In this document: positions 46,065-52,975 of the stretch, piece by piece
Numbering within the stretch: position 1 is the first letter of the stretch
How the letters are laid out: the number at the start of each line of letters is the position of its first letter
DNA from: Minisyncoccia bacterium
GTDB lineage: Bacteria > Patescibacteriota > Minisyncoccia > Phycocordibacterales > JAACPR01
DNA length: 61,710 nt
Direction: 5' to 3'
NCBI GenBank assembly: GCA_041740795.1
Contig: JBGSLH010000004.1
Location: 1-61,710, forward strand
Notes under the pieces: model-generated
The model's database searches: none
What the model was told of the DNA's origin: nothing
Seen by the model: the letters and a program-made list of their open reading frames with translations, nothing else
Made by a program: the position numbers and the translations under genes

Positions 46065-48634
<2,570 letters not shown>

Positions 48635-48637
48635 CAT

Positions 48638-48727
48638 GTCATCCCGCATGAAGTGACTCCATAGGAGGAACGGAGTTGCGGGATCTCGTAATAAAACCAC
48701 GAGATCCCGGAATAAATCCGGGATGAC
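48638..48727 (+). mobile_element. RPE-like palindromic element B2, intergenic
   Basis: GTCATCCCGC...GCGGGATCTC-GTAATAAAACCAC-GAGATCCCGGAATAAATCCGGGATGAC. Confidence 0.87.
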
Positions 48728-48758
48728 GAGAATATATTTACATGCTACTATGGGCTTT

Positions 48759-49043
48759 ATGAATAAAGACGATATCAAACATCTTGCGCATCTTTCGCGT
48801 CTCCATCTCGAAGATGATGAGGCAGAAGCCTTCACACATCAATTTGATGAGATTGTTGCATATGTTGATAAAATTAAAGAAATCTCTTCTGATCTTGGTT
48901 CCGATATTATCGAATCTAACGAAGTTCGAAATGTTCTTCGAGAAGATATCGTTGTTTCTTATCAAAATCCTGAAAACATAATTAACGAAGCTCCGTCTCA
49001 CTCCGATAACTTCGTGAAGGTTAAAAAGATTCTCAATCAATAA
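48759..49043 (+). CDS. gatC: Asp/Glu-tRNA amidotransferase subunit C
   Basis: DIKHLAHLSRL, LRED, VKVKKIL; upstream of gatA. Confidence 0.92.
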   Translation: MNKDDIKHLAHLSRLHLEDDEAEAFTHQFDEIVAYVDKIKEISSDLGSDIIESNEVRNVLREDIVVSYQNPENIINEAPSHSDNFVKVKKILNQ

Positions 49044-49044
49044 T

Positions 49045-50451
49045 ATGAACATTTCTGAATTTACAATTGAAACACTCAATGCAAAATTGATTTCAAAAGA
49101 ACTTTCTGTTCAGGAAGTTGTCGATGCATTCATTTCTCGAATTTATGAAAAAAATGATGAACTCAATGTGTTTATCGAAATTCATAAAGATTTTATCCAA
49201 AAACAAATACTCGTTGCTCAATCAAAAATAGATGACGGGAGCGCGACTATTTTGACAGGTATTCCAATTGCCGTTAAAGATAATATCTTAATCAAAGGAG
49301 AAAAAATCACAGCTGCTTCAAAAATCTTAGAAGGCTATACTGCGACATATGATGCGACCGTCATTGAGAAATTAAAATCACACGGAGCAATTCTTATACC
49401 TCGGGCAAATATGGACGAATTTGCCATGGGAGCGACGACAGAGAACTCTGCTTTTGGGGTGACGAAGAATCCACATGATATGGGCCGTGTTGCAGGAGGA
49501 TCATCGGGAGGAAGTGCCGTAGCGGTTGCTGCTGGGATGACCGTTGCTTCTCTTGGTTCTGATACTGGAGGATCAGTCAGACAACCAGCATCTCTTTGTG
49601 GAGTAGTGGGATTAAAACCTACGTATGGAAGCGTGTCTCGAAATGGCCTTATCGCAATGGCGAGCTCATTTGATGTGATTGGACCGATCACTAAGAATGT
49701 CGCTGATTCCAAAATTATTTTTAATGCGATCAAAGGAACCGATCCTCTTGACCAGACGACTGTGCTTAAGGAGATTTCATCAGAAGTAAAAAAAATAGGT
49801 GTACCATATCATTTTCTTAAATCAGGTATAGATGCGGATGTACTCGAAGTTTTTAATTCGAACATTGAAAAACTCAAAGGTCTTGGATATGAAATCGTAG
49901 ATATTTCAATTCCGAGTTTTGAATACGCACTTTCTATTTATTATATTCTTGTTCCTGCAGAAGTTTCTTCCAATATGTCACGTTTTGATGGAGTGAAGTT
50001 TGGAGCAAAAGTAGAGGGAAAAGATCTTACTGATGATTATTTTAAAACTCGAGGTACACTTCTTGGAACAGAAGTAAAACGACGGATCATGCTTGGTACA
50101 TATGTGCTTTCGGCTGGATATGCAGATGAATATTATAGAAAGGCATGGGTAGCTCGTAATGCGATTAAGTCAGAGGTCAAAACTATTTTTGAACAAGTAG
50201 ATATGATTGCGATGCCAGTATCACCTTTTCCTGCATTCAAAATTGGTGAAATGTCTTCAGACCCACTCAAGATGTATCTTGCTGATATATTTACTGTATC
50301 TGCAAACGTAGCTGGTGTTCCTGCGATTTCTATTCCTGCAGGAACAGTTGTACGAGAAGATAAAAATCTTCCAATTGGTTTACAACTCATCGCGCCATGG
50401 CATGGTGAAGAACGCCTCTTTAATGTTGGAGCAAAATTTGAGATACTGTAG
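49045..50451 (+). CDS. gatA: Asp/Glu-tRNA amidotransferase subunit A
   Basis: GIPIAVKDN, NMDEFAMG, GGSSGGS, GSDTGGSVRQPA. Confidence 0.97.
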   Translation: MNISEFTIETLNAKLISKELSVQEVVDAFISRIYEKNDELNVFIEIHKDFIQKQILVAQSKIDDGSATILTGIPIAVKDNILIKGEKITAASKILEGYTATYDATVIEKLKSHGAILIPRANMDEFAMGATTENSAFGVTKNPHDMGRVAGGSSGGSAVAVAAGMTVASLGSDTGGSVRQPASLCGVVGLKPTYGSVSRNGLIAMASSFDVIGPITKNVADSKIIFNAIKGTDPLDQTTVLKEISSEVKKIGVPYHFLKSGIDADVLEVFNSNIEKLKGLGYEIVDISIPSFEYALSIYYILVPAEVSSNMSRFDGVKFGAKVEGKDLTDDYFKTRGTLLGTEVKRRIMLGTYVLSAGYADEYYRKAWVARNAIKSEVKTIFEQVDMIAMPVSPFPAFKIGEMSSDPLKMYLADIFTVSANVAGVPAISIPAGTVVREDKNLPIGLQLIAPWHGEERLFNVGAKFEIL

Positions 50452-50454
50452 GTA

Positions 50455-51480
50455 ATGGCTGAAATAAAAAAAGACGCTCCAAAACCTACTTCTTCTGCTT
50501 CTGGTGACGAGCGACATTGGTTCATCGCTTTCTTTCCTGTGATCGTGGTCTTTGTTCTACTTGCACTCGGAGCAAGACTCAATCAAGAAACTATCTTTGG
50601 TGACAAGCTTCAGGATCCTCCAACTGATGCGCTTTCGACAAAGAAGGATATTTTGAATATGTACGAATGGATTGGACCAGGTGAACTTTTTGAATCACAA
50701 AGAATTATTAATACAGATAAAGTAATTGTTCGTAATACTCCAGCTGGCGGAATCGTTGGTAAGCAAAAAAAACTTATTACAGGAGTCCTTCGAGGCGAAC
50801 CTGTCGAAGCTTTCAATACAGTATGGTGGAGAGTGGATTATCCCGAAGCTCCCGACGGATGGGTGAATGTTGAGCAGATTTCCTCAAAGGTGAAGACTGT
50901 GCGAGCAATCAACATTGTCCCGATTGTTTACGGATTTTATAAACCGATCGGATACACACTGCTCTTTGTGCTCTTGATCTTTTTTGTATATTTCAAATTC
51001 AAGTTGAAGAAAGAAGAGAAGATTGCCAAAAAGAAAAAGACACTGAAGGATGAACTGTATCAAGAAAAATCAGTGCCACTGTCCGTGCGCATTGAACAAA
51101 AGCCAGATGTGCAAGAAGTGTCGGGATTCCAGACCGAAGAAATTGTCCCTATTCAGGTTCTCGAACAGCAGAACAGGTGGAAACACATCCAGGATCTTAT
51201 TAAGTCATACAATGCGAACGATTGGAGACAAGCGATCATCGAAGCGGATATTATTTTGGAAGAAATGCTCGATAAAATGCAGTACGAAGGTCTGACTATT
51301 GGAGATAAGTTAAAAAAAGTCGAGAAGTCCGACTTCGTGACGCTTGATCGAGCGTGGTCTGCGCACCGTGTTCGAAACCAGATTGCTCATGATGGTTCAA
51401 GTTTCAAGCTCCATCGCGAATTGGCCGAAAAGACAATCAAGGATTATGAAATGGTATTTCGAGAGTTCTACTATATTTGA
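50455..51480 (+). CDS. Two-TM protein with SH3-like external domain and C-terminal HEPN-like domain
   Basis: TM1, VRNTPAG...WWRVDY...DGWV, TM2 followed by poly-K, AHRVRNQIAH. Confidence 0.8.
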   Translation: MAEIKKDAPKPTSSASGDERHWFIAFFPVIVVFVLLALGARLNQETIFGDKLQDPPTDALSTKKDILNMYEWIGPGELFESQRIINTDKVIVRNTPAGGIVGKQKKLITGVLRGEPVEAFNTVWWRVDYPEAPDGWVNVEQISSKVKTVRAINIVPIVYGFYKPIGYTLLFVLLIFFVYFKFKLKKEEKIAKKKKTLKDELYQEKSVPLSVRIEQKPDVQEVSGFQTEEIVPIQVLEQQNRWKHIQDLIKSYNANDWRQAIIEADIILEEMLDKMQYEGLTIGDKLKKVEKSDFVTLDRAWSAHRVRNQIAHDGSSFKLHRELAEKTIKDYEMVFREFYYI

Positions 51481-51580: not shown

Positions 51581-51919
51581 TTGCTCGCCATGCTTTTCTC
51601 AATATGCTTACTTCTTTGGGCAGGAATCAAGCTTGAATCGTCCTTGTACGTGCGAGGATTGGCTCTTGTTCCTTGGTTGGTTATCTTCGGCTTCTCCCTA
51701 AGATTACTTCATGTTTACTTCGAGTGTCCTCTCGACTCTGATTCATTCAGTAAGCTGAATCGTATCATAGATGCCTGCGCGATCGGTGCAGGCCTCTCGT
51801 TTATTTTCATCATGACTATCACTTTGCCAGAAGTGAACATGAAGGCAATTTCTGTAGTCTTGGGAACCTTCGGATTTTTCGTAGTCTATTTCCACTCTTT
51901 ACCCATAAGAAAAAAATAG
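51581..51919 (+). CDS. Hypothetical multi-TM membrane protein (start uncertain)
   Basis: Hydrophobic 112-aa ORF from TTG; upstream TTGACA; terminator 51935-51963. Confidence 0.6.
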   Translation: MLAMLFSICLLLWAGIKLESSLYVRGLALVPWLVIFGFSLRLLHVYFECPLDSDSFSKLNRIIDACAIGAGLSFIFIMTITLPEVNMKAISVVLGTFGFFVVYFHSLPIRKK

Positions 51920-51973
51920 ATAAGTAAATCTGCCAAACAGCGCGTTACGACGCGCTGTTTTTTAATTTAAATA

Positions 51974-52975
51974 TTAGATCTCACTCACTCTATATCCACT
52001 CGGAGCATTTTTCAGATATTCTTCTATCTTTGCTTGTGAAAGAAGTCCTGCTTGCGCACCTATATATTGAACAACCGACATCGAGTTGATTGGTCCCCAG
52101 AGAAATGCTTCCTGAAAAGGTTTGCCAAGCGCAAGGGCTGAAGTGATAGTTGATGCGAAAGAATCTCCTGCACCAGTTCGATCGACAGGTTCCTTAAGAT
52201 CTGGATACATTGGTACTTGATACGTCTTTGATTCGTAGAGTGCGTGTGCTCCGTTTGGTCCGTCTGTAATGATAGGAATCTGTGGACCTAGATCTTTTAT
52301 ATTTTGTAACAATATTTTTATATCAGATTCTTTTGTGTTCAAAATAGTCTGAGCTTCTTCTTTATTACAGAAAAACAGATATGTGTGAGCGTATAGATCC
52401 TTAAGTGCATCATATCCAAGTTTTATTTGAAATGTCCCTGGTTGAAATGCTAATTTGGTATTCGTATTCTTTTTCAAAAATTCTGCGATTTGGTGATGGT
52501 ACTCAAGAGAGTTTTCTGCAAGTGAACTGAGATACATAAAAGACGGTGCAGGAGAAATATTTGGGAACGAGTAGGGGAACTCTGTGTGCTTCACAAGGAT
52601 CGTTCGTTCTGCTCCTAATCTGAGAACATAATGATAATTAGATTTCTGATCTTTATGTACGAGAACGTATTTGGTATTGATACCTTCTTTTTTAAGTGCT
52701 TGAATTTGCTCTCGTCCAAAAGCATCGTCTCCAGTATTAGTTACCAGTCCAGTTTTGAGTCCGAGTCTATGTGCACTTACTCCTGCATTCGGGCTATTTC
52801 CAACAGCAGCCACTACTACGACATCATTGAAAGGGAGCTTTGTACCGAATTTCATACAGAGTTCTTTTTCTCCTGCAGGATTGTCAGTCTCGACCCATGC
52901 GCTGTTAAGTTCGATAAAGGCGTCAGTCACAATATCTCCGACTGCTATAAAATCCAATTTTTTGAAGTTAAACAT
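51974..52975 (-). CDS. PfkB-family carbohydrate kinase
   Basis: GNSPNAG, FCNKEEA, ITDGPNGA, DRTGAGDSF. Confidence 0.93.
   Translation of the reverse strand: MFNFKKLDFIAVGDIVTDAFIELNSAWVETDNPAGEKELCMKFGTKLPFNDVVVVAAVGNSPNAGVSAHRLGLKTGLVTNTGDDAFGREQIQALKKEGINTKYVLVHKDQKSNYHYVLRLGAERTILVKHTEFPYSFPNISPAPSFMYLSSLAENSLEYHHQIAEFLKKNTNTKLAFQPGTFQIKLGYDALKDLYAHTYLFFCNKEEAQTILNTKESDIKILLQNIKDLGPQIPIITDGPNGAHALYESKTYQVPMYPDLKEPVDRTGAGDSFASTITSALALGKPFQEAFLWGPINSMSVVQYIGAQAGLLSQAKIEEYLKNAPSGYRVSEI

Follow-up and report, generated by a model that had tools for sequence, protein, structure and literature searches.

What does a membrane protein with a putative RNA-cleaving domain do in the operon of a translation enzyme? 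This question is raised by a gene at positions 50455-51480 on the forward strand of the window, a stretch of 61,710 nucleotides of the Patescibacteria contig JBGSLH010000004.1. The gene, called X here, is an uninterrupted open reading frame (ORF) of 341 codons that starts 3 nt past the stop of gatA (50451). Its product is a membrane protein of 341 amino acids (aa) with a first transmembrane helix (TM1), an SH3b-like ectodomain, a second transmembrane helix (TM2), a charged helix with a linker and a C-terminal HEPN-like domain. GatA belongs to GatCAB, the tRNA-dependent amidotransferase that converts Glu-tRNA(Gln) and Asp-tRNA(Asn). An earlier note on this DNA, made from the letters alone, had described the open frame downstream of gatA and had read X as a receptor that could couple host or envelope contact to RNA cleavage. 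The frame is where the note placed it, and the architecture, with an SH3b-like domain predicted outside, two transmembrane helices and a HEPN-like domain inside, was right, but the functional reading needs correction, and the linkage to gatA, which had served only as a landmark, is the most informative feature. We propose that X is a housekeeping, membrane-tethered HEPN RNase that is co-expressed with GatCAB, and that the protein of the window is the SH3b-bearing Paceibacteria form of a Patescibacteria-wide single-copy family; we put the probability of this reading at roughly 0.55.

The linkage is visible in the window itself. X is the fourth gene of a conserved ligA-gatC-gatA-X cluster on the forward strand, which starts with ligA (NAD-dependent DNA ligase, 46634-48634) and continues with gatC (48723-49043) and gatA (amidase subunit of 468 aa, 49045-50451). 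The three upstream genes are ORFs that have the same order in loci of relatives, where gatC and gatA match PF02686 and PF01425, respectively. The stop of gatC lies 1 nt before the start of gatA, and a terminator search found no terminator-like site between gatA and X, the nearest one being at 51935-51960.

The arrangement is shared far beyond the window. When five homologues with identities down to 35% were looked up, pseudopilin genes, ligA, gatC, gatA and X were present in 5/5 loci and only the downstream genes differed. The gatA gene is located directly upstream of X in 77 of 80 species-level loci from Paceibacteria, the class of the window (two others end at a contig edge), and most of the 80 loci have the complete order ligA-gatC-gatA-X. 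In other classes gatA precedes X in 19/20 loci, and gatB was found after X by tblastn in 17/20. The distances are short: of 57 non-Paceibacteria genomes, 39 have the start of the gatB N-domain no more than 150 nt downstream of X, and the number rises to 46 at 1 kb and to 49 at 3.5 kb. In four of four sampled members of the Paceibacteria gatB is far from X. The genome of the window fits this pattern, since its gatB is intact but located away from X on contig C11 (locus L005, C11: 21698-25513). The operon thus occurs as gatC-gatA-X-gatB in most classes and as ligA-gatC-gatA-X in Paceibacteria, with gatB moved elsewhere. The former order has the widest distribution and probably arose first, and the order in the window would be derived from it. 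As gatB is present in 149/151 genomes, a test for co-occurrence of X with gatB is uninformative.

Several side observations concern these loci. Only one of the 80 Paceibacteria loci (L039) still has gatB nearby, and there the order is gatA-gatB-X, not gatA-X-gatB. The displaced gatB of the window's genome comes directly after two genes, one for a pilC-like platform protein and one for a pseudopilin (GFTLIELLVV), and precedes gap (GAPDH); pseudopilin genes are also found upstream of ligA at the X locus of relatives. Three loci of one family (L114, L120 and L121), from genomes scored as X-negative, contain a multi-pass membrane protein of 414-418 aa in the gatA-gatB slot of X, which by eye resembles the major facilitator superfamily.

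X also evolves together with its neighbour. The identity of the C-terminal domain tracks the identity of GatA with a Pearson coefficient of 0.70 (n=89 loci, related genomes not being independent). On this sequence comparison, X reads as vertically inherited at a housekeeping rate.

The family is large and nearly always present in one copy per genome. A word-indexed search with X yielded 461 relatives at E<=1e-3, of which about 50 span the full length with 54-75% identity and many others have 33-45%; an exhaustive search of 50%-identity representatives yielded 1961 clusters at the same threshold. We then used a phylum sample of 400 evenly drawn Patescibacteria genomes plus the window's own genome. 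A profile match was obtained in 208/401 genomes, nearly always as a single copy, the window's own genome having exactly one, and two of these 208 genomes (G018 and G071) match the SH3b part of the profile only. The C-terminal domain is present in 20/23 genomes of the window's class and in about half of the genomes elsewhere.

The domain in which the predicted activity resides is a HEPN-like four-helix domain comprising residues 233-341 (51151-51477), which was delimited with an AlphaFold2 (AF2) model, Foldseek and profile matches. Its helices are H1 (233-250), H2 (254-274), H3 (297-316) and H4 (321-337), with an insert between H2 and H3 that contains a short helix (282-288). Because the fold search with the full-length model was swamped by the SH3b part, the domain was modelled separately, with a predicted local distance difference test score (pLDDT) of 93.1 and a predicted template modelling score of 0.86. 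The Foldseek check that the earlier note had suggested for its HEPN call gave a HEPN protein as the best fold match, AF_0298 (2hsb; probability 0.99, template modelling scores 0.61/0.56), and the HEPN proteins 1wty and 1o3u are also in the list. A profile search against PDB sequences with the full-length alignment returned only transmembrane and low-complexity noise. Matches in homologues point in the same direction as the fold: 45 of 120 match DUF4145 at E<=1 (best E 4.5e-5), 35 match HEPN_Swt1 (best E 0.0055) and 24 match RiboL-PSP-HEPN (best E 0.0059). Two Berkelbacteria relatives are named 'DUF4145 domain-containing' and 'RiboL-PSP-HEPN domain-containing' in UniRef. Alignment of a 100-sequence C-domain alignment to seven bona fide Patescibacteria DUF4145 domains with hhalign gave a probability of 82% (E 1e-5), and R307, N308 and H312 of X align to the DUF4145 R..GN...H over a 3-residue gap.

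The motif itself, RNQIAH, comprises residues 307-312 and is located at 51373-51390, exactly where it had been noted before. It lies at the C-terminal end of helix 3, followed by G314, and is part of a longer element, H304-K-V-R307-N308-Q-I-A-H312 (51364-51390), that combines an Rx4H motif with a polar residue after the arginine and a second invariant histidine. An RxxxxH hexamer alone occurs at chance level, and conservation across relatives is therefore the real test, which the earlier note had also named for its claim. In an alignment of 120 homologues, all sequences have R307, N308 and H312. RNxxxH is found in 381/382 retrieved relatives, a count that is somewhat circular since retrieval was by similarity, and the exception is a fragment without the domain; HxxRNxxxH is found in 379/382. 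The invariant columns of the 120-sequence alignment cluster in the C-terminal 100 residues of X (W242, W257, D265, L268, Y277, G279, K287, F294, A300, R307, N308, A311, H312, F335, E337 and F338). Short forms from other classes, of which 19 were compared, share no invariant residues beyond the equivalents of D265, [D/E]269, W301, H304, R307, N308 and H312. A second conserved element is acidic and comprises residues D265 to E270 in helix 2 (EADIILEE, 51247-51264): D265 is invariant phylum-wide, position 269 holds D or E without exception, and helix 2 of X also has E270-x3-K274.

HEPN domains have been defined by a pair of alpha-hairpins, an insert that separates helix 2 from helix 3, an Rx4-6H motif at the end of helix 3 with a polar residue after the arginine, and conserved acidity in helix 2 (Anantharaman et al., 2013; PMC3710099). 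The anatomy of the C-terminal domain fits this definition. The acidic residue of HEPN domains is often part of Ex3[KR] and lies close to the motif, and in X the acidic residues of helix 2 may likewise lie close to R307 and H312. We conclude that it is a DUF4145-like HEPN domain, although X is no formal member of the Pfam family DUF4145.

The N-terminal half of X contains the parts that had been noted before, a segment with VRNTP...WWRVDY...GWV between two transmembrane helices and a poly-Lys signal, and all of them were found in place. TM1 comprises residues 22-40 (WFIAFFPVIVVFVLLALGA, 50518-50574); the model has a helix at 20-42, and relatives have a hydrophobic segment at the matching place. 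The SH3b-like beta domain, predicted to be outside the membrane, comprises residues ~80-140 (50692-50874), with six strands at 83-138 and a pLDDT of ~97. It contains VRNTP (residues 92-96), WWRVDY (124-129) and GWV (135-137). A conserved juxtamembrane segment, INIVPIVYGFYK (residues 152-163, 50908-50943), in which N153 and P156 are nearly invariant, leads into TM2 (residues 164-182, 50944-51000), which lies inside a continuous model helix (154-202) and is also indicated by the hydropathy of relatives. TM2 is followed by a Lys-rich stretch, KFKLKKEEKIAKKKK (residues 181-195, 50995-51039), and the positive-inside rule suggests that the C-terminal half of X is cytoplasmic. The AF2 model of the whole protein, built from the 120-sequence alignment (pLDDT 86.9), consists of an N-terminal helix, the six-stranded beta domain, the long helix 154-202, a disordered linker and the helical C-terminal domain. 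One source labels P0003, a 73% identical homologue from a Joint Genome Institute (JGI) record, as a 'Ca2+/Na+ antiporter'; neither sequence nor model supports this label, which looks like a misannotation driven by the transmembrane segments.

The assignment of the ectodomain as SH3b draws on homologues and fold. X itself scores below threshold against SH3_3 (PF08239; E=0.42, 11.3 bits with a gathering threshold of 27 bits). Despite this score, the assignment is backed by SH3_3 matches in 33/120 homologues (best E 0.001) and by Foldseek, which for the whole model ranks SH3b domains from lysins and NlpC/P60 enzymes first (4krt, 4r0k, 5jqc and 8alu; probability 0.93-1.0, E ~0.1-0.6). Conservation is limited: R93, G102, Q104, P116, P133, G135 and W136 are invariant in a 31-sequence alignment, and only P116 and G135 remain so among 120 sequences.

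Comparison of the family members showed that this ectodomain is variable and the rest is constant. The 80 Paceibacteria loci encode three architecture classes, in all of which the motif lies ~34 residues from the C-terminus. Class a, to which the window belongs, has a transmembrane helix, one SH3b unit, a second transmembrane helix and the HEPN domain (300-360 aa); class b differs in carrying two to six SH3b units in tandem (380-700 aa); class c has one or two transmembrane helices and the HEPN domain, with no ectodomain (180-280 aa). X proteins from outside the Paceibacteria are 129-182 aa long and consist of the HEPN domain and, N-terminal to it, a transmembrane helix or a hydrophobic helix of the GLWWLxSLPF type. 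Every form examined has one of these two kinds of helix ahead of its HEPN domain. Altogether, the ectodomain is absent from 42/81 Paceibacteria forms (the 80 loci and the window), and none was seen among the 19 forms examined from other classes (absent in 19/19). In a HEPN-domain tree of 112 columns, which is poorly resolved, the Paceibacteria forms are one clade and the ectodomain-bearing forms are strongly clustered (5 changes vs 31 in shuffles), with a resolution too poor to tell a single gain of the ectodomain. Since many family members have no ectodomain, the SH3b module is an accessory, lineage-specific insert and cannot be the core mechanism of the family. The SH3b-like call of the earlier note is supported by fold and homologues, and the central place it was given is not. 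The constant part of the family is the membrane anchor and the cytoplasmic DUF4145-like HEPN domain.

These parts suggest how X might act. Hydropathy and the positive-inside rule would place X in the cytoplasmic membrane with the N-terminus in, the SH3b domain out and the HEPN domain in. By analogy with other HEPN enzymes, two HEPN domains would pair, and H304, R307, N308 and H312 together with the acidic residues of helix 2 would form a metal-independent endoribonuclease site. Such an enzyme could carry out housekeeping RNA cutting at the inner face of the membrane, with tRNA or membrane-proximal transcripts as candidate substrates. tRNA is a plausible substrate, since several HEPN nucleases, PrrC and RloC, cut tRNA (cited in Anantharaman et al., 2013; PMC3710099), and on the genomic context one may speculate that it would tie X to the formation of Gln- and Asn-tRNA. 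In the window's lineage, the SH3b ectodomain probably binds peptidoglycan, SH3b domains being known to bind cell-wall polymers, and could position X or modulate pairing by a logic like that of Ire1. Envelope contact coupled to RNA cleavage is thus possible in the SH3b-bearing subgroup. X is linked to GatCAB by its operon; a physical contact with the enzyme may exist as well.

A counterpart of X has already been covered by a genetic study. SEML1_0535 of Southlakia epibionticum ML1 is a gene of 420 nt (139 aa) that overlaps gatA (SEML1_0536) and abuts gatB (SEML1_0534) (Wang et al., 2023, Cell; PMC10633639). The supplement of that paper (Tables S1 and S2) flags it as a core family that is enriched in Patescibacteria, and Table S2 annotates it as 'DUF4145 domain-containing protein' (0.98) with the ECOD domain e1wtyA1 (0.99). 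In transposon sequencing (Tn-seq) it was called GD/GD/ES, that is, depleted of insertions, with normalised reads falling from 127 to 5.9 and 2.8 (PMC10633639). The gene is present only in the supplementary tables, and the main text does not mention it (PMC10633639). Unlike X, SEML1_0535 lacks an SH3b ectodomain. Its length, genomic position and annotation agree with those of the short form of the family, and on these three features, rather than on sequence, we regard it as the orthologous slot.

Several findings weigh against a housekeeping RNase. The Foldseek E-values of the C-terminal domain are weak (0.17-1.3), and the matches other than the HEPN proteins are unrelated four-helix bundles, a fold that matches promiscuously. 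The score of X itself against DUF4145 (PF13643), 13.2 bits with E 0.095, is below the gathering threshold of 23.1 bits. X was not detected in about half of the Patescibacteria genomes sampled, and some of these have a plain gatC-gatA-gatB, so GatCAB as such can function without X. Of 41 Paceibacteria genomes, 39 encode RNase Y over the curated cut-off (40 at E<=0.001), and X therefore fills no obvious gap in mRNA decay. The depletion of SEML1_0535 in Tn-seq may be a polar effect on gatB. Operon membership is itself ambiguous: in several lineages a membrane-anchored cyclophilin-type peptidyl-prolyl isomerase of 216-250 aa (FHRVIxDFMIQGGDP) lies between gatA and X, giving the order gatC-gatA-ppi-X, and gatB follows X directly in L089, L090 and L098 and after 0.3-2.4 kb in L104, L101 and L097, i.e., in all six such loci. 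The presence of this gene fits a shared operon as well as a shared function. Finally, a separate look at genomes scored as X-negative revealed a homologue in the gatA-gatB slot of G087 (locus L130) that carries AHSLTKKILAD in place of the motif.

This last homologue is the best argument for the main rival explanation, in which X is a non-catalytic membrane adaptor whose HEPN-like domain binds tRNA, a nucleotide or GatCAB and tethers or organises the amidotransferase in a transamidosome without cutting RNA. The protein of L130 (G087:C1) is encoded by an ORF of 143 aa at 2556-2987 of the reverse-complemented locus, with a transmembrane helix followed by ...AADRLLDNALK...GKTMGERM...WFAHSLTKKILAD. 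It has lost the R, the N and the second H of RNxxxH and has kept both its place and its membrane anchor, which suggests that a non-catalytic role can persist or suffice. An adaptor would also explain the fixed position of X between gatA and gatB, and ECOD places the Southlakia orthologue in the class 'nucleotidyltransferase substrate binding subunit/domain'; many HEPN domains serve nucleotidyltransferases as substrate-binding modules, and those fused to such an enzyme are non-catalytic (Anantharaman et al., 2013; PMC3710099). The best argument against an adaptor is the invariance of the motif elsewhere. Non-catalytic HEPN families typically lose Rx4-6H, whereas here R, N, H and the second His are kept, with RNxxxH in 381/382, and many genomes run gatCAB without X. 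We consider the adaptor unlikely on balance, although it is the alternative to be taken most seriously.

A closer relationship to the amidotransferase can also be imagined, in which X is a fourth, membrane-anchored component of the transamidosome. Either as a HEPN nuclease or as a module that binds tRNA, X would then act on the tRNAs that pass through GatCAB: mischarged Glu-tRNA(Gln) or Asp-tRNA(Asn) might be destroyed or sequestered, for example, or the amounts of Gln- and Asn-tRNA adjusted. In lineages with SH3b units, this activity might respond to the condition of the cell wall or to contact with a host. If true, this would be a new kind of envelope-tied translational quality control or signalling. 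We think it rather improbable.

Similarly small is the chance that X is in essence a sensor of envelope or host contact, in which binding of wall polymers by the SH3b domain pairs the HEPN domains and triggers RNA cleavage in a stress, dormancy or Ire1-like response. The SH3b-like domain outside, the two transmembrane helices and the HEPN domain inside are what such a sensor would need, relatives have one to six tandem SH3b units, and exactly this logic has been proposed for membrane-associated HEPN proteins (Anantharaman et al., 2013; PMC3710099). A core mechanism of this kind is not compatible with the forms without an ectodomain described above (42/81 and 19/19), and ligand- or signal-dependent behaviour is not readable from sequence. 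As a regulatory layer in the window's lineage, sensing is compatible with a housekeeping RNase.

The defence or dormancy role that the earlier note had considered found no support. A PADLOC search with X gave nothing significant, searches of phages and plasmids found no homologues, and no MNT (minimal nucleotidyltransferase) or other nucleotidyltransferase, antitoxin or defence-island neighbour was seen in five homologue loci, where the neighbours are ligA, gatC and gatA. Bona fide DUF4145 genes are sporadic in Patescibacteria (7/151 genomes) and located elsewhere than in the X slot. Although most characterised prokaryotic HEPN/DUF4145 proteins belong to defence or toxin systems (PMC3710099) and weak, sub-threshold PADLOC alignments to the HEPN regions of DzbB and Csm6 were obtained, an anti-phage or toxin-type effector (Abi-like or HepT-like) that is lodged behind gatA by chance is very improbable and largely refuted by the distribution of X, a single-copy gene with a fixed operon position in hundreds of species and a divergence that tracks GatA.

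Two further candidates were rejected. X does not replace a missing RNase Y in membrane-bound mRNA decay, because RNase Y is encoded in the window's own genome and in 39/41 genomes of the class. It does not replace gatB either, as gatB is intact on contig C11 of the same genome and adjoins X in other classes.

Downstream of X, the operon of the window ends at a strong, bidirectional terminator-like hairpin (51935-51960) that is shared with the convergent pfkB gene (51974-52975, reverse strand). Between X and the hairpin lies a small hydrophobic ORF of 112 aa with a TTG start (51581-51919, forward strand). The closest syntenic locus, L001, does not have this ORF, which is not conserved there.

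To our knowledge, HEPN domains of bacteria have been described almost exclusively as toxins and defence effectors. In the X family, such a domain is encoded by a gene that looks like a housekeeping gene: there is one copy per genome, which diverges in step with GatA and lies, throughout the depth of the phylum, in the operon of an essential translation enzyme, and the product always has a membrane anchor. Much of bacterial diversity belongs to the Patescibacteria, and most of their enriched core families are without an assigned function. This family is short and tractable and offers an obvious catalytic hypothesis. The genetically manipulable Southlakia epibionticum carries the orthologous slot, which makes the question of X directly testable. 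The family is also a natural experiment, in which one cytoplasmic module occurs with and without a predicted extracellular wall-binding domain.

Among known systems, DUF4145-like HEPN domains (PF13643, clan CL0291) are the best profile relatives of X and share with it the four-helix bundle and an R..N...H-type motif at the end of helix 3. The motif of X is a compact R-N-x3-H, whereas the aligned DUF4145 domains have R-x3-N-x3-H. Typical DUF4145 members are sporadic and linked to restriction-modification or abortive infection, whereas the X family is single-copy and embedded in the gatCAB operon. The minimal HEPN proteins AF_0298 (2hsb), TTHA0048 (1wty) and TM0613 (1o3u) resemble the C-terminal domain in size and helix order (template modelling scores 0.51-0.61 over ~115 residues) at a sequence identity of 11-15%. 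In contrast to X, which is membrane-anchored, has no MNT neighbour and stands in a housekeeping context, minimal HEPN proteins and HepT toxins are soluble, usually MNT-paired and toxin-like. RNase Y, the membrane endoribonuclease of Gram-positive bacteria, is alike in its N-terminal anchor, charged helix and cytoplasmic RNase domain, the RNase role of X being a prediction, but its catalytic domain (HD/KH) is unrelated to HEPN.

The logic of an outside domain, a membrane segment and an inside HEPN domain is shared with Ire1, which consists of a lumenal sensor, a transmembrane segment, a kinase and a KEN/HEPN RNase, and with the C6orf70-type HEPN proteins found in eukaryotic membranes. The activity of Ire1 depends on pairing of its HEPN domains. 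Ire1 has the kinase between the transmembrane segment and KEN/HEPN, and its HEPN domain is permuted; X has only a 50-residue charged helix and linker between TM2 and the HEPN domain, no kinase domain and the canonical helix order, and homology is limited to the HEPN core. The likeness would therefore be an analogy of mechanism and not family membership.

The closest precedent is bacterial. 'TM and SH3 (Firmicutes)' is listed among the DUF4145 fusions in Table 1 of Anantharaman et al. (2013), who regarded membrane-associated HEPN proteins as possible stimulus-dependent RNases at the inner membrane face and did not mention a gatCAB context (PMC3710099). Full-text searches on HEPN with Patescibacteria or GatCAB found no paper treating the X family. 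The architecture of X is thus of a known kind, listed in 2013, and what is new relative to the literature searched is a phylum-wide, membrane-anchored HEPN gene that is fixed in the gatCAB operon and has the behaviour of a housekeeping gene. To this family the window contributes the SH3b-bearing variant whose operon is without gatB.

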